NCBI GenBank assembly: GCA_951406725.2
Contig: OX597819.1
Location: 104,966,001-105,030,000, forward strand
Origin: Octopus vulgaris
Lineage: Eukaryota
Length of the DNA stretch: 64,000 nt
Reading direction: 5' to 3'
Shown here: one piece after another, positions 12,601-62,339 of the stretch
How positions within the stretch are numbered: position 1 is the stretch's first letter
Layout of the letters: every line of letters begins with the position of its first letter
Translations under genes and position numbers: made by a program
Notes under the pieces: model-generated
The model's database searches: none
What the model saw: only the letters and a program-made list of their open reading frames with translations
Told to the model about the DNA's origin: nothing

Positions 12601-15600
12601 ATGTGCCTGGTGTACCATTATCAGACATTTAGTCATGATGGGTATACTGGGCTTCGTATATTTTACCCCAGTGTCATTTTGATGGCATGCACTGCTCTCT
12701 CACTCAATAATAGTAATAGTTTCAAATTTTGCTACAGGGCCAGAATAATTCTTTCTAAAATAGGCACAAGGCCTAACATTTTAGAGGAAGGAGCTATTCA
12801 ATAACATACATATTTATTTCATTAACTCTGAATGGATGAAAGGCAAAGCTGGCCAGGATGAAATTTGAACTCAGAATGTAAAGATGGAAAAAATACTGCT
12901 AAACATTTCATCTAGAGTGCCAACAATTCCGTCAGCTTGCCACCTTTATAAAATAATGGTTTCAAATTTTGGCACAAAGCCAGCAATTTCAGGTTAGTCG
13001 ATTATATTGACCCTAATGTTCAACGGGCACTCATTTTATCGACCCTAGTGTTCAACTAGCACTTATTTTATCGACCCCGAAAGGATAAATGGCAAAGTTG
13101 ACCCTGACAGCATTTGAACTCAGAACGTAAAGTTGGAAGAAATGTCGCTAAGCATTTTGTCCAGGATGGTAAAGATTTTGCCTTAATAATGATAATTTTG
13201 AAATCCATTTCTAGCATAGGCACAAAGCTAGAAACTTGGAGTGAGGAGGTTAGTCAATTAAAGAGACCACAATAATTTGCTGGTACTTCATTTTACTGAC
13301 CCTGAAAGAATGAAAGACAAAGTTAACCCCAGTGAGATCTGAGATTAGAAAGTAAAGAATTGGAACAAATATCACAAGCCATTTTGTCCAATACTCCAGT
13401 GATTCTGCCAACCCAATATACCTGATGATAATAATTCTTCCTACTATAGGCAGAAGGCCTTAAATTTAGTTGGTGGGGGGTAGTCGATTACATCAGTCCC
13501 AGTGCTTGACTGGTGCTTATTTTATTAATCCCGAAAGGGTGAAAAGCAAAAATCAACCTTGGTGGAATCTGAACTCAGAATGTAAAGCCAGAAGTAACGC
13601 CAGCATGTTAATGATTCTTCTAGCCCACCTTAATGACGATTATAGTGGAGATGATGATGATGGTCCTGATGATAAAAATGATTGCAGAGAAGAAGAAAAT
13701 GAAGGTAATTCATAATAGTGATGAAATAGTTTACTTACTCCATTTTTCAACTTTTGACTCTTGCTCAATTTCTTGCTGTGTCTTGGCAGGCTGCACCATC
13801 TCAACATGTGGCATCTTGTGTTGATGAGCAGGTGTTGTTTCACTGGAAGCTTCCACAGAGTCCGTGTCGTCATCTGTGTGCCCATTATCGTCATAAACAA
13901 GAACTAAATGGTTAATAATTTCAAAGGCTGTCCCCATACTCTTGAACAAGGGTCAAATTTTAAACAAGTTATTTACTACATTGCATGTATGTGTGTACAC
14001 ACACACACAAGCAGACACACACGCAGACACACAAATACATGTGCACTCATATACATAAATATTAATACATTCTCCAGATAAACATCAAAATGAAAAAAGA
14101 TTTAAAATGCAATAAAACTGATAAAATGAATTAAACATTTTTTTAAAAATAAATTTACTTTACATTTCTTTGTGGCAGTGAAAAGTATGGGGAAAGAATA
14201 AATTTTCAAATTACAAGTATGGGGAAAGAATAAATTTTCAAATTACGTTTCTACCTTAATTCTTTGAGCTTAACCTTACAACCTGCCCTCCTAACCAGAC
14301 CAATCTACTTGGCTATCATAAGTTACACCTATGTTTATTGAGTTGAGCTCCTACAAATCTGATAACATTATCAGATGTATATATATATATATATAACATT
14401 TACAAGTTGCCAGTTTTAGCTTTGATGTATATTGTTTTGAAATACATATTTTCTCCAGAATTATAAGATTTTGAATAAACTTTCCAAAAATGCTTAGGAA
14501 AAACTCGAGATTAAAAAATTATATATATTATTTGAAAATATATTATTTAAAATCAGATAGCAATTAATATTATTATAATTATTTTAAATATTAATGTGTA
14601 AATTTAATTAATACAAGTAAGCGCTGACAGAATTAAGAAAATAAATAGCATTTTTACATATGTAATACTTAGTAACATTTTTTAATAGCAGACATCATAT
14701 CACATAGCTGCATCTACAGGCTATTATTGACTCAAACTGAATAAAATGTGAAGTTTACATTAGAATTAAGCTTAGGCAGAGTAGAGCTGGCATGCCACAA
14801 GGTTATAAAATGCTGGAGAAATGCAAGATAGCACAGAAGCAGTGGATTTATTTTTTGTATTTTTTTTTAGCAGATCTTGATTTTTAGTAGGAAAGCAATG
14901 ATATATAAAAAAAATTGAAATAAAATACTGGCCTTCTGTGAATAAACAGAAGTAGTATATAGCAATTATTCGTTAGCTTTGGCTAAAGCAGCCCAAGGCC
15001 AGAACTAGTTACAGGCCTTTCTTGATTTTCTTTTTCAGTTTTGTCAAAAGACACACACACACACACTCTCTCTCTCTCTCTCTCTTTCTATATATAAATG
15101 AAAGATAAATCCCTGGAAAATATGCACACACACACACACAAACACACATATATGTGCAGAAATTTAATCATTTGTCTTCTGAAGATGTGAGAGTTTATCT
15201 GCTGATTTCCTCATCCAATCATTGTATGAATATGCATCCAAGAAGATATGATTATTACACATAAACTGCTACTTCTATTCTCTCATAAAACTAAAATTAG
15301 TCGGCCATTTTAGATATTTACTTCACATTTTAATACACCATGTCTCTCAGTTTAACTATAAAAACAATGCTCACAACTTAATAAACTGAACCAACACAAG
15401 ACTGACACTAATTGGTATTACCAAACAAACACCACTGAACCATTTCAATAATAACCACATTTACACACAGAAACTCTATAATTAGTATTATATCCTATAG
15501 CTCCATTCAAAGTATATTTTGATATTGCCATAAAACCACCTTCATGGTTTTCTTGATCTTGTCCACAGATGTTACTCAAAGTTTTCAATATGCAGATATA

Positions 15601-15868
15601 GGTAGTATTTGTTTTCATCATCTATTTTTTAAAAGCCCTTGTTTTGTAATTTGTTATTTTTCTTTTCCCTCTGATTTAGTAAAGACATTTTTAAATATTT
15701 AAGGTGGTTTAAATTAAAGCAACATGGAAATAGAGATAAAAATGTTCATTCATTTCATTTCTACAAGATAAACATCAAAGAAATCCTTGTTATTAATACA
15801 ATTACTTATATGTAATACACACTCTTGCACAGTTACATACACATCTAAAGTGTTATATGTGTGTGTAT

Positions 15869-15915
<47 letters not shown>

Positions 15916-16608
15916 TAGACACACATATATATATACATACATACATATACACATACATACATACACACACACACACACATATATATACATATACACACAC
16001 ACATATATATACACACACACACACACATATACACACACATATATATATACATATACACACACATATATATACATATACACACACATATATATACATATAC
16101 ACACATATATATATACATATACACACATATATATACATACATATATACATATACACACGCATATATATATACATACATATATATACACACACATATATAT
16201 ACATACACATATATATACATATGTATATACACACATATACATACATACACACCCATTTGTTTATGTGTTATATATGTGTGTGTGTGTGTCTGCATACCTA
16301 CACAAACGTGTGAGTATACATATAAATATATATAAACACACATATATAAACGTGTGTATGTGTTTTTGTGTGTATGTGTAACACTTCCGTAAGAAAAGGG
16401 GTGACAATGATTTCAAAGTTTCAGTCTGTTAGCCTACTTCAGACTGTCTGAAGAAGTCTAGCAGTCTGAAACTTCAAAGTCACTAACATTCATCACTTTA
16501 ATATTAAGTTGCCTTTATTATAACATGACATAAAAACAACAATATATATAACATCATCATCATCGTCATTTAACATCCGCTTTCCATGCTAGCATGGGTT
16601 GGATGATG

Positions 16609-16663
<55 letters not shown>

Positions 16664-16939
16664 CACATGTACACACAGAACACTACAAGTAATTTAAAAA
16701 TTAATCCTTAGAATGTGGGGAAGTGTGTAAATGTAACAATAACAGTGGGAGAGAAAGCAGTACACAATTTTGATGAAATTTTACTGCAAAATCTGTAGAA
16801 TGGACCTTATTTCAGTAATAACTACAATAAAATAAGGTCCTTGTTGCTGTGGCAACACAGTGCAGGATATAAAACTAAATGTATTTTAACAAATTTAAGA
16901 TTAGGGGGATTGGGGAGATGGTAGGGAGAAAAAGTTGGT

Positions 16940-16974
<35 letters not shown>

Positions 16975-19900
16975 TGTGTGTGTGTGTGTGTGTGTAATGT
17001 GGGAGAAAATGTAAAGGGATAACAAAAAAAAAAGGAAGAATAAGAGAGTAAGAAGAGGGATAACAAAGGAACTATGAAATATTGGAAAAGAGCAAGAGGC
17101 GCAAGTGAAATATAGAGGAAGACGAAAAGAGAGCAAGGATGAGTGAAAAAGGAAAAAGAACAAGGAGATAAAGAACTGGGGACATGATGGAATGAAATGT
17201 GTAAACTGAGTAAGTGTGTGTGTGTGTGTGTGTGTATGATGTAAAAAAGGAAAAAAAAAGAAAGAGGGATTAACTAATGGAAGGCCCTACCCCCACTAAA
17301 TTCTTGAAATGGAATCATGAAGATTGACTCTTCCAAATTAAATAAACTTAAAATATGGAGAATATAGTCGAGTCAAATTGATGAAGATTGAAGCAGCTAA
17401 ATATGGTTTGAAAAAAATAATGGACTGGGAAGATAAACTATATGGGTTTGTATGCCAACATAGAAGACGGCAGTAGGAAATAATAAACAATTATTATAAA
17501 CTTACTAATAATTAGAAGGACCTTAACCTTCATGAGAGGGGAGTATTTGAACAAACCCAGTCAATGTTTGGTACCAATATTACTAATCTTGGTGAAAGAA
17601 AAAGTAGTTTGCTCCAAATGTAGACTAAATACCACAGTATTCAAGTGTACTTGTAAGTATAAGATTTGGGGGTTTTGTTTAATGTTACTGGCTCTCAAAA
17701 AAAGCTGAAAGAATTGATGCCAGTGGGATTTCAATGTTAAGGGATGTTAAAAACCACTTGAGAATTTTTCTGGCACTATCATATCAGCCACCCAGTTGCT
17801 TTAATTATAATTGTTTATGATTAAGCCAGCAATTTTGAAGAAAGTGGGTTAGTTGATTACACTGACCCCGATATTTAACTGGTACTTTATTGATCATGGG
17901 AAGCTAAAAGGTAAAGCTGACTTTGGCAGAATTTGAACTTAGGATGTAAATCACTGGAACAAATACTGCAATGCATTTTTCCAAAGCCCTCATTATTCTG
18001 CCAGTTAACCACTTCAATAATAATAATTCTTTCTAATTTTGGCACAAGGCCAGTAATTTGAGGGGAGGTTGATGTAATAACTCCAGAGCTCAACTGGTAC
18101 TAATTTATCAACCCCAAATAGATGAAAGGCAAAGTTGACTTCAGCAGGATTTGAACTCTGAATGTAAAGAGCTGGAAAAAATGCTGCAAGGCATAATAAT
18201 AAAAATCCTTTCTTCTGGAGGCACAAGACCTCAAATTTGGGAGCAAGGGACTAGTCAATTATATCACCCCCAGTGCATAACAGGTACTTAATTTATCAAC
18301 CCTGAAAGGATGAAAGGCGAAGTCAACTTCAACGGAATTTGAACACAGAATGTAGCGACAGATGAAATACCACTTAGCATTTTGAACAATTCTGCCAGCT
18401 CACTGCCTTAAGGCATAATAATTGCTTATGCACAAAGCCACTTGTTGAAAATAGAAGAAAATCTTCAGATGTTTTTAACTTCAATGTATCAGTATTAGTT
18501 ATTTTATTGATGAGCACAGTAGGAGTCAACACTGAACACTGTGGGAGTCAACACTGACTACTGAGTAATGGTGACCACATTGAGAAGATCAGATTTTTTA
18601 ATACAAAATCTGAAATTTACAAAGAAGGTAAATGGAAAATCATGTCAATCATGACCTTTGTAACAATGATAGCAGCTTTTAAAACACTAGCAAGAATCTA
18701 AACTGGATCACATATAATGGTTATTTGCTGAACTTGCAGTTCCAGCCAGCAACATGATAGAAATTTTGTTCTGACTAGATGTAAGGAACAAATTTCCTTT
18801 TATTGCAAAAGGAAACTACAGACAAGTAAAAAGTTAGCATTTTACTTTGCAATGTATATTTTGTCTCCAGAAGGATAAAAAAAGTACAGGGATTTGAAAA
18901 ATGAGGCACCAAGACAGAGCACTAAGGATTACTGTGATGTATATAGTTCTCTGTTGGTCAAGGCTTACCATGCATATGCAAGCCATGAAAAGAGTCTTTT
19001 TTAGGAAGAACAGTAATTGCACATTTCCCTTCTCTATGACACTAACATTTTATCCAAAGGAAAGGTAACTGACTTAGGCCAATACAGTTTGGAACTAGTG
19101 TTGTTGCAGGCCTTGCTATCAGAATGTAAAAAGTTGGAATATTCTGCAAGGGATCTTGTCCAACTTTCTAACAGCTCCACTACTGTACTACCTAGACTTT
19201 TTTTTTAACTCTGCATGAAAGGCTAGGTTAACCTCAGCAGGATTTAAACAGAGACTGCAGAATTAGAACAAATACCATGAGGCAATCTATCCAATGCTCT
19301 ACCAACTCTGCTAATCCACTGCTTTTACTACTACGATAATCTCTCTGAAATATACTAGTCACCCTATGTTGATAGTGAATAACTTAGTCAGCATGTTAAA
19401 AAGTTCAAAAGATCTGTTTTATTTCTTTGAAAACTATATTCTAAGGATCTGTTAACAAATTCAAATCTTATAGATATATATGATTGATCCACTAGAAACA
19501 TTATACGTTAGCATTTATAGAAAAACACCTGTAACATAACTAGTTTTTATTTCCCTACATAAGTGACTGAAGCTTCCAGAAATAAAATTGTAGTTTTAAT
19601 AACTAATCAACTAATAATTTTCATGTGTGTATGTGTGTGTGTGTGTATGTGTGTGTGTGTGTATAACTGATATAAAGTGGTAATGTATAAGTAGAGATAA
19701 ATTCCCAGAGGAATAATTAAATATGGGGGATAACTATACAAAAACTAAAATTCTAAACTGACAGTTGTTGACAAAACATTTATTTGCCTGCCATATCAGA
19801 TTCTAATTAATGTAGAATTTAAATTAAAGGTAATGAGAAATCAACGGTATCAAAATGTTTGAGTTATAAATGGGGATGTGTACTTCAAATTCAAATTTTA

Positions 19901-20799
19901 TAGAATTTTGGTCACTTTTCAAATATCAAGCTATTTCTTTATTTCACTTTTCAAATATCATGCAGACAACTGATAGCAATGGACAAATCTTTCAATACAA
20001 ACGGTACATAAAAACAATTCTACTAGCTACAGGAAAACCTAAAACATTTTTAGGAGGTTTTAAAAGGTGAAAAAATACTCAATTCCCAAAAGTGAAAAAG
20101 AACATGATAAAATGAAGGAAAAGTTAATTTGTAAGAAAATTTCCTGAAGAAGACTTGTAAAATCAAATACTGGCAGTGCTGCCAATAACCTTAATTCTTT
20201 ATATTGTTACTAAGGGTTTTTATGTCAAACTGTTTATACGGGTTGATGAAATAAAAACCAGGAATATGGAAACGCTGTCAGTTAAACCAGTTGGATAGAC
20301 TGTACAGTTAGTCTTCATTTCAACTAGTTATGTAATAAATTTCATTTCATATATACATAAAATTAATAATATTAATAATCTTTTCATGAAAATTCATTTA
20401 ATGTTTGATCAGATTTCTCCAATGGTTCCAACTGATAGTCTGGGATTGAAAGGAGGGCAAAAACAAACCTAGTTAGATTAAATTGCACTGCAGAACAAAG
20501 TTTTCTCCATTTAATAAATTTTTTTAAAAATTAAAAAGAAAATACATTAAACATAGAAAAAAAATATTCCTAAGGTAAAAAAAGATAAAAAGAAACAAAC
20601 ACACACATTTAACCAAACAAAACTGACAAGCATGCAATCTAGTTTTCCTTATATTCTTGAAATGCATATCCTTCCAGTTGGTATATGGTTATTATACAGT
20701 TTAGTCAATATTATTTGGCCATATCCAGAAAAATATATTTCATTATAGTAGAATTTAATACCAAAAATACCACAGTAAAAACATCTGGCATTTGACATG

Positions 20800-20857
<58 letters not shown>

Positions 20858-22561
20858 TTATAGAAGAAACAAAATATTCTTTCATAAATGTTTTATCTGG
20901 ACATTAGTAATGATTTATTATCGGCAATGAAATGGTAATTAAATTTACATGTTATATACTTTAAATTGAACAGTATTGTTGTTGTTGTGAATGAGCAATC
21001 ACAATATCAAATAATATTTATTGTGCTATAAATATGAAAATATCAGTTCAACAAATATTGAAGAGTAGTTACTAAAGGTCATTTAAAAAAAATATAACTG
21101 CTTTATGAGTTTTTGTTTGTTATGGAATGATATAGAAATTAAGGTGAGACAATACATCGTTATTAGTCTACCTTAATGAATCTAAATTACCTGGATTTCT
21201 AACACCTAAATGTGTAAGTGTACATAAGTATGTATAACTTTTGTGTGTGTATGTGCGTATTTTAAATAGTTCAATTAGTAAGATCTCTTGATTATCTTCA
21301 GTATAAGAGCTAGGACCAGCTAAGACATAGAATATGTTTTTATTGTATTAGCACGTACATAACAAAATTTTCAGTAATCTGTGTTAATACAATAAGCATT
21401 TAAACCAAAAGATAAAAAAAAATATATATTTTAATTCTCAAAAGGGCATTATTTCAAAATATAAAATAAAAATAGGCGTCAAATGGTTACAATAGCAGCC
21501 TCTCTGGATTTATTAACTTTAAAAAAAAAATCCATTATGTCAGTTTTTAGATGTAGGGAAAAAATTTTTTTGATGAAATAATGTAACTAATTGATTTTTG
21601 CTTTTAATAGAAGCTTTAGCTATGAAGGCATAATGCAGGATGATTGCAGTTATAATATTTAATCTGCAAGAACTAATGCAAGACAGCTTTTCATGTTTAA
21701 CAGTAAATATTTTTGTAAGTCCCCACAGTAGTTAGATTTTATAATAAAAGGATTAAAAACCAATTAAAATGAAAAACAAAATTAAAACAAAATAAAATTA
21801 TGTCAAGCAAAACACAAAGGTAATTCACAGGTGCAAAATGAAATTAGATTGCAAACAATAATGAAAATAATAATAATAATAAATAAATGAAACAAAAGAT
21901 AAATAAAAATAAACAATTTTAAAACATTTACAACATATATATACATACATGTATATACATACACATACGTATGCATACATACATATATAGATATATATAC
22001 ACACATTAGATATATGTATATACAGACACATATGTATATATACAGAGATATATATTCATAAATATGTATACAAACAAGCAAAAACAAAAAAAGTCTATCA
22101 ACTCCAAATCCAGAAAGCATGCATTGTCATGCAAATCATGTCCAGGCAGACTGTCCAGTGCCAAGAGTGGTCGCAGATGGTTTAAGCCTGCATTGCGTAA
22201 GTGAAAGAAGCTTTTGTTGTTGTTGTAGCTACTTGGTAATTTGCTTTAGTTTGTATTTAGAAAATTAACACTAATATCACAGCAACAACCTTCATAAATT
22301 CTTGAAGATTTAGGAAAGAGAGCAAGAGAAAAAAAAAAGTGTCTCGTTTTATTTATTATTATTATTACTTTTATCAGACGCAAAGCTAGTGACTTGAAGA
22401 GCAGGCAGGTCAGTTTGGGGAGCAGGCAAAGAATTCTGGGAAGAGTCACATATTTGTTCATTAAACATTTATAATTGGATTGGTTTATCTCATATTTCAA
22501 CTCTAAACATCAACACATCCAGATATACATATACACCAACATGTATGTATGCATGTATATA

Positions 22562-22618
<57 letters not shown>

Positions 22619-22913
22619 CCACCATGTGTTTTATATGGGAGAGTGTTTAGGAATGTGTTTTTCATATTTGTATGTGTGTGTGTTGGTGGGTAGATGAAAT
22701 AGCAAAGAATAAAACATGGGTGGGTAAGGGATGGAGAAGAACAGTGTTATAGTTAACCAAAATCGGTTACGCAACAAATGAATTTAACATGTTTGTGAAA
22801 TGTGTACTGACATTGTTGCCACAAAGAAACGCACCTTCCTGAAGAAAATACATGCAAAGTCAACACAGTTGTAATGTATATATAGATAGATAGAGATTTA
22901 CTTCATGTTATAA

Positions 22914-22950
<37 letters not shown>

Positions 22951-25900
22951 CATATACATATATATATATATATATATCATGATACGAATGTGTTACTAGC
23001 AGATGAATCATGCTAGACTGTAAAGCATGGCAAAAAAATACGACACTGTAGGCAGAATAAAGAACTAGGGAGGCAGGTAATACTGGTTCCTACCTTCGGC
23101 AAATTCATCGTCCCATTCCAAATTGGGGTATACAAACTTTGGGGAACCGATGCGTGAGGAATCAAAGCGTGGAGACGACCCTGCTCGACAACAGCCATAT
23201 AAGGAAGGAAAGGACAAGGAGTCAGAAAAAAGGGCTTCCAAAAAAAAGCACCCAAATATCTTATTTTATCGAAAAATATCAAATCTCTAATGAAATTTTG
23301 AAGGAAAAAAAAGTCATGTGAACTTTTCATCAAAAATATTTGTATATTATGATTACAGGATGAACACATTAATGGATTTAAAATACTCATTGTTTAACTT
23401 ATGAATCAAATTTGCTGTAGTGGTTAACAAGAAAATTAATAGAGCCCCATGTATTCACAAAGAGAGAAACATGTCTTTCTTATGAACACTTACATATACA
23501 TAATTACATATAACAGTAAACAAATATTTTACAGATTTTTGACTTGAAATATCATCGTTATTACTTTTATCATTTTTTTTATTATTATTATTTAAAAATT
23601 ATTATCATTGGTATGAGCATTATTAGTATTTACTGAAGAAATTACATATTCTTTAAACACTAGATTTTTGCAGTAATATTAGTTTTTCTTTTTAATTATT
23701 TTATGCTAGATATATTATTTATGTACCATTTATAATCTTTCTTGGAGAAATCATTATCATTTAATGTTTTCCATGTTGGCATAGATTGGACAGTTTAACA
23801 GGGTGTGGTAAGCCATGGAGCTCCAATGTCAGCTCTTGGCATAATTTCTATGGCTGAATGCGCTTCCTAATGCCAACAACTTTCCAATGTGTACAGGGCC
23901 TGTCAGCACTGTATCAGACCAACAATGCAGCTGTGCATATTTTCCACTACTTGCACTCTTTTATAAACCAACCTATCAATTCAATTTCACAGAATACAAA
24001 CACATCCACCAGACATCAAAAAGGAGACACAAAATTGCTTAGCAATACAGTGGCAATGATGTCTAATAAGTAGTGTCAGATCCACACCTCATTTAAATCT
24101 TACAACTTTGAGAGAATATAAATGATAGAGGATCTATGAATATTATATGAAAGCTGATTTATATTTAATACTGAGGAATAACACATTTTATTACTAATTA
24201 ATGCAAATATATCATTTTAGATAAAAGATTTTTTAATTATTTCTCTTCATAAACTGCAAAATATGGAAGTTTTTAACATATTTTTGAAAGATTAATTAAA
24301 TTTTCAAACTTTATTCCCTTGCATATTACCAAAATAGAGGGATTAATGAACATTAAACAATTTATAGCAGGGCCGTATAAAAAATAACTTATGATTAATA
24401 ATTTTAAGAAAATAGAGGAATTCATTACTTAATTATTCTAAGTATCTATGGTATTATAAAATGGTAAACAACTCAATTGGAATGAAAGACAGGCTTAAAA
24501 TTCCAACGTTAAGCTCCTGAAGATAACATGTGATAAACATTATATATACATGTATTTGATACTGTAAAATATATTTACTAAGGTGAAAATATATAAATGA
24601 AAAATATAAAAATCATTTCTTATGCATAAAATTATATGAACAATACTTTGCATTAACCATTTATAAAATTGGCTGTTGTGTTGTTTTGATTTTTTTTCTC
24701 TTCCCTAACAGGTTTTACAAACAAATATATAACAGAATATGTTATGTTGTACTCTTCCTAACACTGAGGACCTTTCCCAAACAACAGTAAGTCAAAAGTA
24801 TTTCACTAATAAACAATAGAAATATTTTATCTAAGGTTGTGTATATAAATCAACTTCTCAATATGCTAAACCATCCTAAAATATAATTACAATTTATTAA
24901 AATACCTAGAGTAATATGGTTAATTAATAATGTTATCTGGTTACTTACTCCACCTCACAGTTTTCTTTTGAGAGATAGTTTCTTTGTTTACATAATTTAC
25001 TAATTTCATTTATTTCTATTTAATTTCTATTCAGTTTTAATCTAAGCTAGTTTTACTCCATACATACACACATATACTTTGCTCCTTAATTTATACTTGT
25101 TTTTCTATACTAGTACTTACTAGATGGATGATTTATGGCTGAATACCTTTACTGTCTCTAACCCTTACCTGTTTTACAAGTAAGGGCTCTTTTTATTCCA
25201 CTACTTTGAGAGTACATAGCTACAGGCTGTAACATCCACTGGGAATATAAACATCCAATCTCATACAATGAAGGAAAAATGACAACACACATATTCTATA
25301 TTTATATGAGAGACTTCTGTACAGCTTCCAATTCTACTGATTCTATTCATAAAGCATTAGTCAGCCCCAGATAATAGCAGAAAACACTTGCCTAAGGTGC
25401 CACATGGTTGAGAAGCAAATTTCTTAAGCATACAGCCATGATATCATATATTTCCTACACATGAGAAAACCAAATAATCAACTCTTTAAATACCAAGCAT
25501 AACTAGTAACAATTTCATTAAGTGAATGTGTGTGTGTTTCTTATAGCTATGAACCCCTTAAACCAATTATCTTTAAGGGACTTGACAATGCTTCTTTGAA
25601 AGAGTCCATCCTCTGCAGTAACACTCAAGACTGAAAGCTAATGAAACACTCATTGGTTTTGCAGTGCTCCCCCTGTCTACAGCAATAAGTTGTTCTTACT
25701 TTCTGAAATTTATTTACAGTTGAGTAGACTATGCCATTCGAAAGATAAGTATTTGACTATAGACACAGAATAACAATATCAAATTGCTAAATAGTTCTTT
25801 CTTTCTTCACACACACTAAGGTCTAGATTATCTGACTATTAGAATAGCCAATTTGATAAACTTAGAATAAAATTGAAATATTAAATTAGAAATAATAATA

Positions 25901-26768
25901 CTAATAATAATGTTAAAAATCAATAATAACAGAAATTTTATAAGAGATAAAGAAGCTGAAAATGTTGCAATAATTATTTAGTCTAATAGAAACAAAGGAT
26001 TAAAAAATATGTGTCCAATATTCTAAGTCGAAATTATTATTATAATTATTATTATTGTTGTTTGGGTTTGTTTATATTTTGAAACAATAAATCTACTCAA
26101 TCCATATTCCAAAATTGATCTAAGTCAGAATTCATAAACAATGGAAATAATATATACAGGAAAAGAAAAAGAATTAAAAAAAAACTAAAAGTTAATAGCA
26201 GTTTTTTTTTTAAAACTACGTATTAAATGAGAATTTTTGGAAGAAGCTCAGATAACCAGAGATTTAGATAAAAAGTAAAATACATGATTGTGTGTATGTG
26301 TGTATTTTTGAAGGTACCAAATGATCTTCAACAGATAGCCAATATGTATGCACACACACATATAAACGCACATACATATATATGAACACATCTCTCTCAC
26401 TCTCTCTCTCATGTGTTTGCATGTGTGAAATCTTAGCCATCACTCATAAGTGAGTGTGACATGGTAGCATGTACCATGCTTACACTGACTGTTCAAGGTA
26501 CTTATGTAGTCACAGGCAAAAACTGTTATTCTCTCAACCATCCCAGTCTTGACCCTGTAGAACATCAAAGATGTGAAAGCTAGGGGAAGAGACAGCTGTA
26601 CTAGCTGTCAGCTGGTACTCATTTTCAGTCGGGCAGACTGGAGCAATATGAAATGTAGTGCCCTGCTCAAGGACACAAAGCTGTCCTGTCTAGGAAATGA
26701 ACCCACAACTTTACAATCATGATCTCAACACCCTAACCAGTAGGCCCCACAACCATATACATACAACA

Positions 26769-26810
<42 letters not shown>

Positions 26811-29439
26811 TGTGTGTATGTATATAAATGCACTCACACACATGTACATACAAGCATGTAATGTGTCACAGTTAAAATCCAATTAGCATGAATGCAATTT
26901 TATCTTAAAATGTAAATTTTAAAAAATTCATTACAAACTGAATAAAGGATCTTCAATAATATAGGGTCTAAATGACAATTAAGAGGTGGTGTGAGCATGA
27001 GACAGGAATGGAAAATGGTGTGATATAAACAAAAGCAGCGCTGCAATGAAGCTAGTAATAACATCAAAAGGTTATGGTAGTGATGGTGATGAGAGTATGA
27101 TGGTGATTGTAACACTGACAATGTTTGTTGTGACTAGTTAGTTATGAAACTGTTTTCTGGCAAAGAAAAATAGTCGGCTGTATCGACACAGTATATTACT
27201 GGTACTTGTTTAACTGACTCTTAGGGAATGAAAAGATAAAGCTGACCTTCAGGGAGAGGGTTCATATGGGGTGTGTCACAGACTAATAAATAATGGAACT
27301 ATATACACTAAAGAATATAAATCACGAGCTCTATAGTCCCAGATGCCACCACCATTGTTATTATTATTATTATCACTAATAATTAACTTAGTAATAATAA
27401 TAGTAATAATCTAAAAATAAAAATGAGCATGAAAGATGATATGCGAAAATAAAACAAATGAGAACATCACATGCATTTGCAAAAGAAAAAACAATAATAA
27501 TGAAATAGTAATAAAATAAGTATAATATCATGCAATTTGGATTGTAAGGAAATTAAAGTATTAAAAATAAATGATTTACTATTAAACTATTATTTTTATA
27601 TCATGTAATTATAATTGCATATATTATCAACATTATATTATATTAGGAAAGAGAAGTGAAGTGAGCAGATACAACTTGTAGACTTCCAGACTGGATATTA
27701 TATTGTACAGTAGTTAAATCTATACACTGCTATTTCCAATCCAAAACCCTGTCTGGTTAACTATTATAAATCCTCTTCCTTCATCTCCAGTCAATAATAT
27801 AATTAGTGTGTGTATGTGAGAGAGAGAAAACTCAATTATAAGAGTAACTGCCTCGTTTCAAATGACTGAGGGTTCATCACTGCTATCTTGCATATTATTT
27901 AAGTGCTAACAGCAACAAGATACTTGATAAAGAGAACAGGGTTTCTATTAGTCATCCAAAACAATTTCACATAATACTATCTCATTTAGCAGAGTATAGG
28001 TAAATCTGCACCAGCCATGGTAGAATCTAACCTCACACAACTGTAAACAAACAGACCAGTTGCTAATTAAAAAAATTGGTATTATATCATTGACAAATTC
28101 TTACAAATTTGAACATAGCATTAACTTATCTATTCAATCATTGTTGTGACTTGTGAGTTCAATAATAAGCCTTCTGGATCACAGAATTTAGAAACACTGA
28201 CGGTGCATCTACATTCAAGTCTTACATATGCTATCCTGAATGGCTTCAATAATATTGCTTCTAACCTGCAGTTGCCTCACTGAATCAGACAAGTGAAAAG
28301 CTAAAGGTCAATTTATTGAAGGCAGCTCTACAAAGGCAACAGCCCTTTCCTTCAGAAAGAATGAGTTAATGTTTGGTATAAGGTTTAAAAGGTTAAAAAT
28401 AAAGAATGGAAAGAAGCAAAATTTGATGTAGTTCAAATTATAGTGACAATTAGAATGTTATGAAAGATTAAGTCCATTGCAATAATGGATGAGTGGCAAA
28501 GAAGGGATATAGTACAATAATGGATCAACGATTGAACATTTTCAATGGGGAGAAACATATTGCTTAGATTTCTCATTACAGAAAGCAAAAGTCTCTGCTA
28601 AATCTATTTAGGGAATATAGTCTGTTGCTACTCAAGACTGAACAATTTCTTGGTAAGCTTACAAGGATGGCAGGGGTTCACAGAAGTGTTTCTAACATCT
28701 TTTTGTGATAGCAGATCCTTTAAGTTGCAAGCTGATCACAAGAACAATTATCAAGTTGTAGTCCTTGCCCCCAGGCAAAACAATCACTTGCCTTTTGATG
28801 TCACTAAAACCTACTCTACTGACAGATTCACTTTGGTCCTCTTTCTGAATGTCTAGTAAGAAATGGAAAGAATATTGAATTTGAAAGGAGAGGCCATACA
28901 ATTTCATATGAAAGACAGAATATAAAGTAAGAAAGAACTGAAAGGATACATGTACTGTTCAATGAGTGACCTTAGATTCCTCAAGTGGAGTATGTAAGAA
29001 AAACTATATTGAAGTTTAGTCAAGTCATTCATGAACTCACAGGTCAACAGAACTGGGAGTTTCACTATATAGTATTTGTAGTTTAAGTAGAAAAACTGAT
29101 CTGACTGGGGCTAGTTTGCCAAGCAATAAGTAACTTTTCTTGGCTCTCTGATGACAAACAGCACCAACAGTGATGTGAGGCTTGTAGGTAAAGAAAAACA
29201 AAATGATTTTAAAAGAAACATAGCAAAATATCGGATCTAGATATCCAATAAGTTATTAATGTCTTCAGAGACAACCATAAGCATTATTAACAATAATTTA
29301 ATTTCCTTACATGATTGTAATCTATTTAAAATAAAATATATGAATACAAAAAATATGCTTCACCACATAGAGAAAATAACTCATTTGAAAAGTTCAACAT
29401 GCTAAACTGTGCCAAGTGAGCAGCAAGTACACACATAAG

Positions 29440-29488
<49 letters not shown>

Positions 29489-29788
29489 GGATTTACAAAT
29501 GGTAAGGAATAAAGGAAATACAAATTCAGTGAAGATACCATTATCAACTAAAGCAAGTTTAAGTAAATTCAAACTTGGAATTTAATTACAAAAATGTGCC
29601 TGTTTGTGTGTGCATATATATATGTATGTGAGTGTGTAGAAAGTTGAAAAGGAATACATGAGTTGATATATACGGAAAAAAAGTCAAGGTAGAAAATGCT
29701 AAAATAATTTTATAAAAAATATTTCAGTACCATTTAACATCCTACTACTATCATGGCACTCACACATTCTTCTACCTTGACTTTTTTT

Positions 29789-29831
<43 letters not shown>

Positions 29832-32432
29832 CAAATTTACATTTGCACACACAATGATGATGATTGCTGGTGTCTATGCAGGTGTGTTTTTTTTGTAGTT
29901 ATAAGAGGGCATGTACATACTTCCTTATTGGTACTCATTTTGTCAACTGAAGGATGAAAAGGTCAGATCAACTCTAGTAGTAAAGCCCTAAGCTAGATAT
30001 TTAACACTACTTGAGTGATCAATAATTTTAACCAACTTTTAATGTACTGATGATGTTAGTTATTGAAATGAAGTGGCCTTTCTGTAGTTAAACCAGCTGT
30101 CACATTGTGACAAACCTTACTAAATTCCCACAGCCTAGGACTCTTCACTTCTCTTAAGCAATTTTTTTATGGCTCCTAAGAGCTAGAGGTATAGACAATC
30201 TCTAGACTCATTAGGTAATATTTATTAAAAAAAAAAAGGCAATAGAAATCTAGTAAAATATGGCCATGAACCTTATTCATGTGTCAAAGAGACAAGTAAG
30301 AAAGAGTAAGGAGACTCAAAACAAAGGCTGATACTGTTAGAAATGGAGATGATAAAGAAGACTTATAAATGTTACATATTTATAGAATAGAGAAAATGTG
30401 ACTGTGACAAATTCATGCTATACTTAATGGAATTAGCAGCACCAATTAATAGATTTACTTCAAATAAGGACTGAAACTACATTGCTGGTGCAGGTGGTTT
30501 CTATGAGGCTGTCTTTTGTTCTCTGTAGTGGGATTGCTTCTTAAGTTAATAACATGCACCAAAGTAAACTCAATGGGATTTGAACTTGGAATCAAATTAA
30601 ACACTGTATTGAGTCCATTACTCTACTGTCCAAATTATCTTCACTAACAATATATTTATGAGAAATAACTTATTCGAAACAACATGCCATTTCCTCTCTT
30701 CTGTATAATGTTACATCTTCATGGCTGTGTAAATAAAGTAAGATTTTAAAAGAATGATATGAGGTACAAGACCAGCAAATTTGTGGGCAGCATGCACCAT
30801 TGACCCCAGTATTTGAATGGTACTCCATTTCATTGGCTCTCAGAAGGATAAAAGGCCAGACTTGAATTCAGAACATTAAGGGTCAAAAGTAATTCTGCAA
30901 AGCATTGTTTTCTGACACTAATGATTATGCCAATAAACACACTGATTCATTTTGAAGAGAGGGGATACAGTTGCTAGTATTTTATCTATCCAAGGATGAT
31001 GAAAAGGATGTATAAATAACTGAATGTAGAACTCTGGGGTATTAAACTAGATATTGTGAGCTAAAATATTCACTGAAATGATGATGATGATTTATTACAT
31101 CTACACAAGGAGGAGGAGGATGAGTATATGCAATCAATGAAGTTGAATTCAATATAAAACTTGTACTTTGCCAACCTTAGAGGAATGAAAGGCAAATTTG
31201 ACCCTATCAACATAAGAACTCCACATGTAGACAGTAGGAATGAAATATCATATTTAATGCACTGCTTCAATATTTTTGACACTTCATCACCATTATTATT
31301 ATTGATTAATGAAATTTTATTCCCAAAGTTATTTTAGTAAATTCTCTTATATTATCTTTTCCTATCTCATAGTTTAAATTTTTTTAAATGTGGCTTTTTA
31401 AATTTTATTAATTTTTAATTCCAAAACAAAAATATTGAAATGAAAATATAAAATTTTGCAACTTAAAAAGTTACTCTATGTCCAGACAAAATGTTTTAGT
31501 AAATGTTACAGAAAGAATATTTTGCAGTAAAAAAAAAATGTGAAAAAAATAAAAATCAGTGAATCAAAATTCAAAGATATACAACATATACAGGAGTAAA
31601 ATGTAAACTTATGTTAAGATAATACCCAACTGCTAAAACAAACTGATTTCTAACTTTTTATTACTTTTTATCAATATGTACACAAGCTGAAAATATCTAA
31701 GGGATCCAGCAAAGCATAACAAACGAAATCTTCGATGAATCTTGTACATAGTCACTGCTTGTGATGGAAAAGTCACAACTTCTGATAGATGGTAACCGAT
31801 TTCGTATCTAGTTTCAAATCTTCAACAGTTTATCAAGCAAAACAAGATATTATCCACTCCTTATTGATTCAAGACTGTTGTTGAGTTACTTTTAAAGGAA
31901 AATAAGCTGGTAGTTAAGGAATCAATATTCAGATATGATAGTAAAATTATATTCAAGTCAGATAAATAAAGTTGTAGCTATGTAGCCTGAGAGGAATCAA
32001 TAGATATGTTGCTAATCAATTATAAATAGCAAAATGGAAATGAAAGATTCAAGGAACACTGGGTGCAGTATGGCTCAATGATTAAGACATTCATAGGCAA
32101 CTGTAATTTTTATAACTTCAGATTAACCCATACTTAGTGACTGAAACTGGGTAGATGAAAACTGAAGAATCTTGCTGAGTGGATTGTACCTGTAATTTAA
32201 AAGGTACAGCCTAGCATACTATATCACAATGATTCTACTCTACAATGCTCAGTTATTTTCATTAATTCGGGAATGGATAATTTGGTCAGCAGAAAAACTG
32301 CATCCTCATTGAAAGACAGCAACACCCCGGCTCGAAATGTAAAAGACTTTTTCTATTCCTGAGCGTTATACTAATACATCTGTTTATTTTGTACACCATC
32401 TGTCTTCATCTTTTGTTTTTTTCATAAACTCT

Positions 32433-32486
<54 letters not shown>

Positions 32487-34351
32487 TAAGTCAAAATTAC
32501 AGGACAGCTGCTGAATATGATGTTTCAATATAGTGAGACTATCATCAGAGAACATGAATCTCATTCTTTTATCTTGAGAAAAACCCTTCGTCATCCTATT
32601 TGCAGTTTGAAAATGTTATATTCATCATTACACATTGATAGTTTCACCTCATCCTGATATATAACACTTATTTTGGAATTACAAATGGAAGGAGGTAATA
32701 TCTTTCCCAACAACACTAGTACAAGAAACTAAGCCTTCTCAATCAATAACAAAAACCAGAGAGTAAACTGTATTTCCAAAGAGTTTCTAACCAAATCAAT
32801 GCTCTTCTTATATGTATCTAGCAACATACACACAAAAATATACTTTCTCTGAAAGATTTGTGAATAAATTTTCGGAGAAACAGATTACTGAAATCATTGA
32901 TTAGTTTCAATTTGGCTACTCTGTATTTTTACCCCTCTAGAGACTCTGCAAGTGACATAAAACACAGAAGTTTAGACATTTGCATGTGTTCTTGAAGCAT
33001 GGAAATTGTACAACTTAACAATCTACATGCAGCTTAATGGACTGACCTAAAGAAAGTTATGGACCTTTTCCAAGGATATATCTGGAAAGATCACAAACCA
33101 TGGCCAAGTTACAAATTCAGAGATTTCCAAATGAAACTAAACTGATTTTTTTTTTTTTTTGATAAAACCTATTCTGATAGGGAACAGATGTGTACTTCAC
33201 AAGGGACAGGTTTATGTATTGCCACACCACCAATATTATATATATATTCCTCCTGTATTGAGAAACAAAAATGATTTTAAAATGATGAGTTGGTTCTGAG
33301 TGCTGTTAAAAGGGTGCTTTAATAATGATGTGGAGTAAGAATATTCACAAAAACTGTATAATTTCCTGGCACTATATATGAAACGATAGTTTCATAGCAA
33401 TACTTAATATTCATGCAGTTCATGGTAATGTTGAATTATATTATAAAACTATTTGGATTCCTGGCTATGTGTAATAATAAAATTTATAAGACTGCACAGT
33501 TTCATGGTAGTAATCAAATACAGCTCTATGGCAATATGCAATAATATTTGTGAACCTGAATAAGTTCAATGAAGCACTCTCTTAAGAAAAACTCAAATTT
33601 GATATCTTTCATAAAATAAACCTTAAAGTTGCTTCTTTTTTCTTTATCTTTCCTCGCTGTTGTCAACAAGGTTGTTATTATATAAAGAATAATAACAACA
33701 TTGGCAAAAATAAACAAACAAAAGAACAAAGAAAATAAAACAAGATAGAGGGGATAGTGAACTTAAATTTTACAACAATTACCAAATTAATGAATGGAAA
33801 AACCAAAAAAAAAAAATAATACTAAATAAATATACTGATGGCATTTTTCTCTCTCTCTATAAACTTCCAAAGATATGTAATTTATTATAAAACATTGAAC
33901 AATATCTTACAGGTAGAATTTCAAAAATATTTTATTGAAAAAAAAAAAAAGGAAAGAATATCCAGAACTGTTGAGTTAGCTGAAATTAAAACAATTCTAA
34001 AATATGCAAAAATTAATTTATACATCAAAAATTGACAGTCTACCCTTAGTTTCACTCATGACTATTCACAACTGTGAAGAAGAAAAAGAGACCTGCAAGA
34101 TTATAAAGGTTATATGAATGTAACACATGTTACAAAGAGTTGAGTGTTTAGCATAACTGTAAACTAAATTTCATGACAAGGCAAAACTCAGAATAGACTG
34201 TCAACTTTCAATATAATAAACATATCTATCCACTCTCCATATCAGATAATGTTTGTACTATGTAAAATATATTTCTATTTATATTTCAAAACTCTTACAC
34301 ACACACATTTTTTATATATATATACATATATATATACATATATATATATAC

Positions 34352-34396
<45 letters not shown>

Positions 34397-34629
34397 TGTA
34401 TGTATGAAGTAAAACTTCACATATGGAAAATGAAACTGTATAAAAAGATAATATTTGAGAGTTCAAAGATTGAGCTAGCACTACTCTAAAACCACATTTC
34501 AGCTGTTCAGCAACACATCACAACCAACAAAAATACAAGAAAAAAAAATCAAACCACATAGTGAATATATGTGTTAGCATGTGTATGCATGTTTAGGTAT
34601 GTGTATGAGTATATATATAGATATGCATG

Positions 34630-34674
<45 letters not shown>

Positions 34675-36661
34675 GCATATATACGTGTATATATATATAT
34701 TATATACATACACACACATATATACACACACACATGCATACCCACATACAATCATTTGCACAAAACAAAAACTTGTTCAAAGAAACACAAAAAAGGAGAT
34801 GGGAATCATTCCATATTGGTGGATTTTACCAGAGGATAAGGCACAATGGAGATACGATTTACAGAAAAATTACCCATAACAAACTAGGAATTACCATGGA
34901 AACGTATATACACATAGAAAGAAAGACAGAAAGAGAGAAAGAAAGAGAGAGAGAGAGATGTATGTCACTGACAACATCTGGAAGGTGCGTTTATTTGGGC
35001 AGTTTTGCAGGCGCTAATTATGATCAACGTCTAGGTTGGCAGTGATGAAAAAAAAAAGAAAGAACATATGTAGAGGGGGGGTTGTTGTTATTGTTGTTAT
35101 TGTTTTTAAGATGAGGCATGCTCAACAAGCAGGAGGAACGAAGAATTCATCCCTAGGCCAGAAATTCACTTACCGTAATAATCCCATGGTCCCCGAGCTT
35201 CAATGTCAGCAAAGTAAAATGATAGACAAAATCAAAAACAAATGCCACATAAGAAACTAAGTTGATAAGCTTTTGGTTTAATATTTTTGCTTTTATAGAT
35301 ATTTCCATATCTTTTTTTAATTCATCTCTAATGAATAAGAGTTTAATTTAATTAGATAAATATAAATCTTAAAAATTCTCCTACAACTAAACCCAGTCAA
35401 CTGTCTTCTTTAAATATATATGTTAAAATAAATAACAATAATAATTCCACCAGAGATGGGAGCATCCCATCAACAGCCATAATCTAGCTTTCATCATGAT
35501 TTCAGTACTTTTTAGTAATGTCACTCCCAACAGGGGTGCCTTGTATCCTGAGGCTGCCTGGAGAACATCCACAAAATTCATAAAATATGGCTTATGTGTG
35601 TGAGTGTGCGTGCATATGCTTGAAATGAGTTACTATATACGAGATAAGAACACTTAATACTGCTTTGGTAGAGTTTAATTTAACAACCAAAAGCTATGAT
35701 TCAAATACTTCAGACAGTTACAATTTATTTCATGGCATTACACTAGGGCATCATTATGCAGTATAATATAATTATATAAAACAAATTTTTATGATCCTAG
35801 ATATTTTAATCCTAGCTTTTAATCATTATAACTTCATACTACTATAAAAATTAGCTTTATTTTCTTAGCTTTTTATCATATTTTGCAGTATCTATCTATA
35901 CTTCTCGAGTTTTCCTTATGTACCTGCTTCAGCTATAGACACATGTGATTTCAGTCTATATCTGAAGAATGAGATTGATAAGAAAGATCAGGAAACAATA
36001 GATGAACAAACACAGGTGCTTCCAGAAGATCCAAAAATGTTACATCAAGATTTTTTATAATGTTTGAGTTGTTCATTTGTACTTATTTATTTTGGCCAGT
36101 CATGCAGCATGAAACAGAGATGCAGGCAAGAGCATATGTAAAGGAATTCATTTTTGTAGTTGAATACCTTCACAACCATTCCAAGTTTGTTAAGAATATA
36201 TAATTACTCATCAAATCGTTATATTCAAAGCAGTGTAATCTCCTGGTTATTTTCAATTATATACTAATTATTTTCCATTATTTTGTCTTTTTTTTTCTTG
36301 TAGACTTATATCAATTTGAATTTATCTTTTACTTTTGTGAATTTTCACATATTACATTTTTTAAATGAATGATATTTTTTATATTCTTTCATAAAACCAT
36401 TTTCATTTTGTTATAAAACTGATTAAAATTTTAAATTAAAGCATAAAGTTTAAAATTTCAAATAATAATAATAATGTTTTCTAATAATAAATCATAATTA
36501 GCCAATTAAAAACAAATAAAATCCAAGCCCACAAATTTAAATTTTCATTACTTATTTAAATACTTTGAATAAAAAAATTAAAGGAAAGCAAAATATAGAA
36601 TATACAATAAGCAAAATGATAAACAAAGCTATATGATTTGTACAATATGGACACACACACA

Positions 36662-61977: not shown

Positions 61978-62339
61978 CTACAAACCAAAATAAAACCAAT
62001 TTATGATGCAAGAGTGACAGAGCTATGTCAGTATTACAATTGCTGTAAGCCATGCAAAAAATTGTTAGACCTTATATCAAAGAAACAAATGATTTGCATT
62101 TGCTTTACACTTAAAAATTAATTGTCAAATCTAGGTGGATTACAGCATGTAAAATAAATTATCTTGTCTCAGAAACTAAAATGTCTACAATGGATTGAAC
62201 TAACAACCCGTGAGTGAGTAGTTCAATAATTGTCTACACAACCATTTCATTTCTAATTTTGTAAATAGTTAGCTTAATATTTGTTTTGATTTTACAGATG
62301 ATGTAATCCTTAATCATACAACATAATTCCCATTATATA

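Follow-up and report, generated by a model that had tools for sequence, protein, structure and literature searches.

The window analysed here, a 64,000-nt stretch of Octopus vulgaris DNA (contig OX597819.1, forward-strand positions 104,966,001 to 105,030,000), carries the dynein intermediate chain gene on its minus strand, and three short intronic elements of this gene, termed A, B and D, are complementary in a pattern that centres on B as a hub. We tentatively propose, as a reading that still falls somewhat short of probable, that they make up a long-range pairing module under selection, where A:B would loop the 87-nt cassette exon v4 out and B:D would tether B near the following acceptor. 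The elements lie in a variable region where four cassettes (v1 to v4) sit between constitutive exons at 61982-61856 and 13927-13739 (minus strand). The evidence for A:B and B:D is their position rather than their strength. The elements are as follows:

34980..35001, minus strand: element A, 173 nt past the v3 donor; complementary to the whole 23 nt of B apart from one mismatch and one bulge
22817..22839, minus strand: element B, the hub, 255 nt past the v4 donor
14161..14177, minus strand: element D, 258 nt ahead of the 13903 acceptor; pairs with the 3′ 17 nt of B

A:B consists of 13 perfect pairs, a mismatch, 4 pairs, a bulge and 4 pairs (core energy -31.8 kcal/mol), and B:D of 17 contiguous pairs including two G-U pairs (core -24.7 kcal/mol); with a few flanking bases the energies are -34.6 and -26.3 kcal/mol, respectively. 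These pairing patterns are those given in the initial annotation of this DNA, whose coordinates and sequences for the three elements match exactly and whose distances to the splice sites and 8.6-kb gap between B and D were confirmed. The spans are 12,140 nt for A-B and 8,639 nt for B-D. The arms of A:B lie in the two introns that flank v4, which is alternatively skipped, as in a loop-out, and those of B:D lie near both ends of a single 9.2-kb intron (donor +255 nt, acceptor -258 nt), as in a bridge; the gene, the exons and both geometries hold as first described.

B has its two best partners within the window in A and D, and each of these in turn pairs best with B; the runner-up for D reaches -17.1 kcal/mol compared with -26.3 kcal/mol for B. 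No pairing is predicted between A and D themselves (-2.5 kcal/mol). A is perfect over the 5′ 13 nt of B and flawed over the 3′ 10 nt; D is Watson-Crick over the 3′ 13 nt, wobbles further 5′ and cannot pair with the first 6 nt of B. The two full duplexes overlap on 17 nt of B. Among the best seven sites for B in the window, none near v1 or v2 is comparable. A gapped partner of B near 16836-16866 (-26.8 kcal/mol) makes use of flanking bases.

Strength, position and repeat content

To set the duplexes against chance, 912 seeded duplexes were ranked in the masked 48-kb variable region and compared with local dinucleotide shuffles. A:B heads the ranking by a narrow lead; B:D is in 40th place. Duplex strength alone does not establish the finding, and several counts weigh against a selected module: the energy of A:B was reached in 5 of 35 whole-region shuffles, duplexes matching B:D in strength numbered 21 per shuffle on average, and an equally strong hub arose in 2 of the 35. 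Of 26 real control strand-blocks, 15 held an isolated duplex matching A:B in strength, stronger ones being frequent, and 3 held an opposite-side hub. Two of these three control hubs are both strands of an upstream block, the hub being a 47-copy repeat. The region itself holds 11 duplexes at -30 kcal/mol or better, compared with a shuffle mean of 2.5, and two helices of at least 17 contiguous pairs at -24 kcal/mol or better, compared with a mean of 0.55 per shuffle (325 shuffles). In the block L002, a strong inverted pair about 300 nt apart (~7530-7880) lies 1.5-1.9 kb upstream of the start-codon exon and belongs to a repeat with 47 genome matches.

Nearer to the splice sites the same comparison, by which the initial annotation had proposed to judge the duplex energies, favours them. 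We used ten 300-nt flanks of variable-region splice sites, and repeated the test with 600 nt. Within 300 nt, A:B and B:D are the top two duplexes; A:B was reached in none of 609 shuffles, a second-best duplex as strong as B:D occurred in one, and a shared hub with both partners at -26.3 kcal/mol or better also in one. With 600-nt flanks (178 shuffles), A:B was reached once, the best duplex matched B:D in 34, the second-best matched it in 5, and a hub was found in 1. Among 508 sets of ten real 300-nt octopus windows, a hub at -26.3 kcal/mol was present in 6 and a hub as strong as this one in 2, and the 28 constitutive-exon flanks of this gene yield a best duplex of -28.7 kcal/mol. In addition, all three arms lie 173-258 nt from consecutive splice sites; since 300-nt flanks make up 6.2% of the region, the cube of that fraction is 2.4e-4.

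These figures have to be read with caution. The 300-nt flank size was chosen with the distances already known and the feature was picked from many windows, and therefore the splice-proximal figures overstate the case. Also unfavourable to the proposed module, the best duplex was as strong as B:D in 38 of the 609 shuffles with 300-nt flanks, and the strength of A:B alone was reached in 48 of the 508 real-window sets. Taking these results together, we consider A:B probably selected; the selection of D as well as A:B is evenly balanced on this evidence, and the same holds for A, B and D all being functional.

The sequence surroundings of the elements bear on the same question. Filters for tandem and low-complexity sequence and a cross-block BLAST filter made against 650 kb of other genome sequence left all three unmasked, which bears out the earlier description of B as non-repeat. 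A is single-copy, with one genome match at up to 2 mismatches, and the 5′ 18-mer of B has four matches at up to 1 mismatch, B and A among them. In contrast to a control with 9 matches, the 3′ 19-mer of B has 94 genome matches at up to 2 mismatches; this half of B resembles a word found in two dispersed repeat families and therefore has a higher chance of meeting a partner such as D, a further point against the module. The 13-nt core of A is unlike the repeat word. In the genome, exact copies of the D-type 17-mer number five, B and D included. Of 14 look-alike loci in the genome, 8 fall in two repeat families by BLAST, and their flanks are unlike those of A, B and D. A 201-bp genome search around B, of a kind that skips common words, returned only B itself, and no inverted homology was found in the flanks of A:B or B:D (scores 10 and 8). 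An origin of the elements as relics of dispersed repeats finds no sign in flank homology or masking, and a common origin by local duplication was rejected for want of flank homology. By sequence comparison, none of the three elements can be recognised as a piece of a repeat, although the 3′ half of B is a common sort of word in the genome.

The main alternative is that the duplexes are chance matches or neutral relics, unselected short complementarities in an AT-rich, repeat-laden 48-kb region in which proteins alone regulate v4. It gains from the whole-region shuffles, from the control blocks, from the repeat-like word in B and from the selection of the feature after the fact among very many windows, and even conserved complementary pairs are reported to carry false discovery rates of 10% to over 50% (PMC8052449, in the part of that study covered here). 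It is harder to reconcile with three arms placed beside consecutive splice sites, with the rarity of such a hub in splice-proximal shuffles and real-window sets, with the absence of flanking homology that would mark the elements as relics, and with a core of A unlike the repeat word. We regard this alternative as a serious one, if on the doubtful side.

No Rfam family matches A, B or D. A metagenome scan with the frame of the 87-nt exon gave 596 pattern matches and no relative, and a scan for the first 20 nt of B gave no matches. Among sequencing runs compared with the stretch holding B and v4, X5 covers exon and intron evenly, as DNA would, X23 and X19 cover short low-complexity patches only, and X9 shows 2 differences in ~865 nt, neither of them in B, and is too close to gauge conservation; in the four runs, neither splice joints nor editing were seen over this stretch.

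Cassettes and isoforms of the variable region

The gene was identified from the translation of one window exon, which is identical to the cytoplasmic dynein 1 intermediate chain of O. vulgaris, O. sinensis and O. bimaculoides. The exons of the variable region are, in transcript order:

61856..61982, minus strand: upstream constitutive exon, ending ...VETGDRE, which opens the variable region
53760..53792, minus strand: cassette exon v1, 33 nt, with AG/GT ends and a peptide present in isoform records
43433..43471, minus strand: cassette exon v2, 39 nt
35174..35197, minus strand: cassette microexon v3, 24 nt (RGPWDYY); a homologous peptide is found in many other molluscs
23094..23180, minus strand: cassette exon v4, 87 nt (...LEWDDEFAE), the exon enclosed by A:B
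13739..13927, minus strand: downstream constitutive exon with alternative acceptors at 13927, 13903 and 13873 and a donor at 13739

In 39 cephalopod protein records that span the variable region, v3 and v4 occur together in 8, v3 alone in 9, v4 alone in 8 and neither in 14; the corresponding numbers in 65 records from other molluscs are 14, 37, 4 and 10. These records are a sample (15 of the 88 members of the main cluster) and are mostly gene models rather than counted transcripts. Because both peptides occur together in some records of each group, v3 and v4 are not mutually exclusive. The exon v4 is a true cassette, an old optional exon with pan-molluscan homologues: it is present in 16 of the 39 cephalopod records and absent from 23, and Logan-derived records show both states. 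In squid and cuttlefish its peptide is almost the same as in octopus. Records in which v1 is joined straight to v4 exist as well. When v4 is included, the acceptor at 13903 is used in 9 of 16 records and that at 13873 in 7 of 16, and therefore no link between v4 inclusion and acceptor choice is visible.

Two features adjoin the v3 acceptor. A UGC lies just upstream of it (35198-35215, minus strand); UGC upstream of an acceptor is a feature of neural microexon regulation. Records from O. sinensis (P0015, P0025) and O. bimaculoides (P0021) contain three extra residues (D/N-I-E) ahead of v3, and nine bases coding for them at 35198-35206 (minus strand) stand directly before the AG acceptor of v3 and after a TG. 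A separate 9-nt exon for these residues was looked for in the window and none was found. This arrangement suggests that a TG lying 9 nt ahead of the AG serves as a conserved alternative 3′ splice site, probably used from two donors. TG-AG tandem acceptors within 28 nt are described for human genes (PMC2374985, as far as that account was covered).

Predicted pairing states of the hub

Under the proposed module, A:B would enclose v4 and favour its skipping, and B:D would anchor B just before the next constitutive acceptor, fully in the absence of A and partly with A bound. A would hold the 5′ 13 nt of B, leaving the 3′ 10 nt contested (predicted -9.8 kcal/mol for A and -16.0 kcal/mol for D at standard state). 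With A bound and D on the 3′ half, B would splint A to D, shortening the path from the v3 donor to the acceptor from 21.3 kb to ~450 nt and leading to skipping. If A were blocked or had left with the upstream intron, the full 17-bp B:D duplex could form, shortening the downstream intron of v4 from 9.2 kb to ~520 nt and leading to inclusion. D would thus serve both outcomes, and the choice would depend on the capture of B by A, which could be tuned by a protein at an adjacent UGCAUG hairpin, by elongation rate or by temperature. In other genes loop-outs are described as lowering exon inclusion and bridges as joining distant splice sites (PMC8052449, PMC10790352, each covered in part).

The competition for B is predicted to be lopsided and partial. 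Co-folding of the three sites, joined by short linkers, placed A on the 5′ 11-13 nt of B and D on the 3′ 10 nt together in 34-90% of the ensemble, depending on flank length, and another run gave a joint occupancy of 0.40-0.98. By explicit energies the three-strand A:B:D state reaches -38.0 kcal/mol, compared with -31.8 for A:B and -24.7 for B:D, and lies below A:B alone by 6.2 kcal/mol at 37 °C to 7.7 kcal/mol at 18 °C (1 M). To be in balance it would need D at an effective concentration of 4e-5 M (37 °C) or ~2e-6 M (18 °C). The 3e-7 M expected of an ideal chain is below this requirement and to that extent unfavourable to the module, and therefore the three-strand state would need a compacted intron. 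How much this state contributes turns on the costs of long loops, for which no reliable calculation is available, and we consider it possible, not assured.

The initial annotation had proposed instead a strict two-state switch in which B pairs with A (skip) or with D (include) and never with both. The overlap on B on which this proposal was built is real and covers 17 nt, and the loop-out and bridge geometries hold. The reach of A into the half of B used by D, matched in 589 of 24,470 random real flanks (2.4%), is the best point for a real competition and lies somewhat beyond chance, and the reach of D beyond 10 bp was matched in 752 of the 24,470 (3.1%). A second long loop would also be costly, the ideal chain falls below the three-strand concentration, and two elements competing for a third are known from human ATE1 (PMC7797038, in the part covered). 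However, A:B is stronger than B:D by 7.1 kcal/mol at 37 °C and 9.4 kcal/mol at 18 °C, A is transcribed first and the first 6 nt of B are beyond the reach of D, and therefore D is unable to evict A without help; the predicted energies make its complete replacement of A unfavourable. Mutual exclusion is also at odds with the co-folding, which puts both partners on B at once. A clean either/or switch is thus doubtful, and we judge this reading unlikely.

The accessibility of B adds a cost. B is predicted to be locally folded and to need 10.6-11.5 kcal/mol to open, which tells against the module. Part of this fold involves a nearby hexamer:

22851..22856, minus strand: UGCAUG hexamer, 11 nt before B, in a predicted hairpin that masks the 5′ half of B

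We take this hexamer to be an RBFOX-type motif. Keeping its hairpin open is predicted to lower the opening cost of B from 10.6 to 6.8 kcal/mol. Because the variable region holds 21 such hexamers, a regulatory role for the one beside B is a lead only. On the transcript, D is preceded at a distance of a few bases by a perfect tandem duplication of 32 nt (14183-14246).

A more far-reaching form of the proposal would make B an intronic RNA splint, a 23-nt element pairing simultaneously with two elements that lie 21 kb from each other and are not mutually complementary. The three-way junction would join the upstream donor to the downstream acceptor and loop out the exon beside which B lies, and B would become a plain exon-including bridge without A. 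Predictions place the three-strand state close to balance at the body temperatures of octopus and make it stronger in the cold, so that such a splint could act as a temperature-tuned dynein isoform switch, within a wider network that includes a further candidate pairing (E:F, below) across a variable region found throughout molluscs. We regard this form as speculative and improbable as a whole.

A simpler possibility is that only A:B is real, as an ordinary long-range loop-out, and that D is a chance match to the repeat-like 3′ half of B. In its favour, B:D is far down the ranking of the region, a partner as good as D is expected for B in ~5% of 9-kb introns (8 such sites in 1.3 Mb), and the wobble extension of D past 13 pairs was matched in 4,811 of the 24,470 random flanks. 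Such a partner is, however, expected within 300 nt before the very next acceptor in only ~0.2%, and B is D's best partner by 9 kcal/mol. We think this quite unlikely. Finally, the duplexes could form for some other end, as a substrate for A-to-I editing, by which coleoids recode extensively (PMC10278661, as far as covered), for back-splicing, which intronic pairing can drive (PMC10790352, likewise), or as compaction that aids long introns without exon bias, in keeping with the excess of duplexes at -30 kcal/mol or better, but the helices are short and wholly intronic and A, 11.8 kb from the v4 acceptor, is poorly placed for circularising v4, so we consider this very improbable.

Comparison with known systems and further features

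The initial annotation had assigned the arrangement to the docking-site/selector family. The observation itself is real and well placed; the family label is wrong. There is a likeness, in that docking-site/selector systems (Dscam1, 14-3-3zeta, Mhc, MRP1 and the bidirectional srp), as outlined in the part of PMC6071210 covered here, also have one site complementary to several distant sites that overlap. The exons of those systems are mutually exclusive and usually duplicated, with the docking site outside the cluster and a selector beside each exon (PMC6071210), whereas the octopus exons are unrelated and co-included, the hub lies beside a regulated exon and one partner lies beside a constitutive acceptor. 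By inspection, the exons of 33, 39, 24 and 87 nt encode unlike peptides, as opposed to tandem duplicates. In place of an outside docking site with one-sided selectors, the partners of B lie on opposite sides of it and D adjoins a constitutive acceptor. Because v3 and v4 are not mutually exclusive, A/B/D is not a Dscam-type docking-site/selector system.

By analogy, A/B/D would combine the action of a loop-out with that of a bridge, and human ATE1 comes closest to it in logic. In the portion of PMC7797038 covered, two elements of the R1/R3/R4 and R2/R5 system, R1 and R4, compete for a third, R3, and long-range pairing (R2:R5 spans 30 kb) sets the isoform ratio and depends on elongation rate. 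The ATE1 module differs in enforcing mutual exclusion of exons 7a and 7b by hindering 3′ splice sites (PMC7797038), whereas the octopus cassettes are independent, all elements lie more than 170 nt from splice sites, the pairings extend over 9-12 kb, and both partners are predicted to be able to occupy the hub together. Loop-outs and bridges in CASK, PHF20L1, DST, Drosophila Nmnat, SF1 and ENAH have the same layouts as A:B and B:D, and the UGCAUG beside one arm is reminiscent of RBFOX2-linked cases (both in the covered parts of PMC10790352 and PMC8052449). As described there, these are two-arm structures, whereas octopus B has two roles, as the 3′ arm in the loop-out layout and as the 5′ arm in the bridge layout; many of the two-arm cases rest on conservation or experiment, whereas the octopus case is known from sequence and predicted pairing.

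Alternative splicing of small exons in the N-terminal part of the dynein intermediate chain is described for mouse and for Drosophila Cdic (PMC2908135, covered in part). The octopus exons are likewise small alternative exons of the N-terminal region, a likeness by description. In mouse the alternative exons are richest in neural tissue, and the isoforms are thought to set or alter interactions with dynactin and cargo in neurons (PMC2908135). An RNA-structure mechanism is not mentioned for this splicing in the part of PMC2908135 covered. We found no published RNA-structure mechanism for dynein intermediate chain isoform choice within a coverage that left aside the supplementary catalogues of PMC8052449 and most subscription papers, and no splint or three-way-junction splicing layout of this kind was evident in the literature as judged by paper listings. 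Dynein is unmentioned in the text and the four supplementary files searched of a Drosophila screen (PMC2724269; one further file was outside the search), and the covered part of a 2024 review (PMC11802352) mentions neither dynein nor molluscs.

If the proposed module is real, a loop-out and bridge sharing a hub on an ordinary cassette over 21 kb would extend competing-structure control past mutually exclusive clusters and into molluscs, and would suggest how exons of 24-87 nt are handled within introns of 9-12 kb. With three short elements, it is cheap to test.

Other pairings were detected in the region, among them one absent from the initial annotation:

53103..53121, minus strand: candidate element E, 639 nt past the v1 donor; forms an uninterrupted helix of 19 pairs with F, one of them G-U
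33518..33536, minus strand: candidate element F, v3 donor +1638; partner of E, and pairs with B more weakly (-19.2 kcal/mol)

E:F (-30.3 kcal/mol) is the longest helix in the region, has only two other genome matches at 1 mismatch, and was matched in none of 477 shuffles but by an equally strong helix in 10 of 13 real blocks. It is a candidate that would loop out v2 and v3, and is not splice-proximal. A second pair, G:H (53315-53330 with 34880-34895, 16 bp, about -21 kcal/mol), joins the same two introns, crosses E:F and falls within the shuffle range. A 15-mer, B′ (35243-35257, minus strand, 45 nt before the v3 acceptor), is the second-best partner of D (-17 to -18.1 kcal/mol; -8.1 with A), at noise level. 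Sites at 33655-33676 (-27.4 kcal/mol) and 61921-61948 (-31.4 kcal/mol) can pair over the v4 acceptor (23162-23196). Masking of this acceptor by the former, nested in A:B, is not beyond chance, with six such partners per 650 kb, or ~11% per 12-kb intron.

The long introns also hold sequence of other kinds. Interrupted reading frames on both strands at 47800-49460, in the intron between v1 and v2 and partly masked as dispersed repeat, are likely retroelement remnants, and a full-length 5S ribosomal RNA match (101 bits) lies at 56611-56729 on the minus strand, in the intron before v1.

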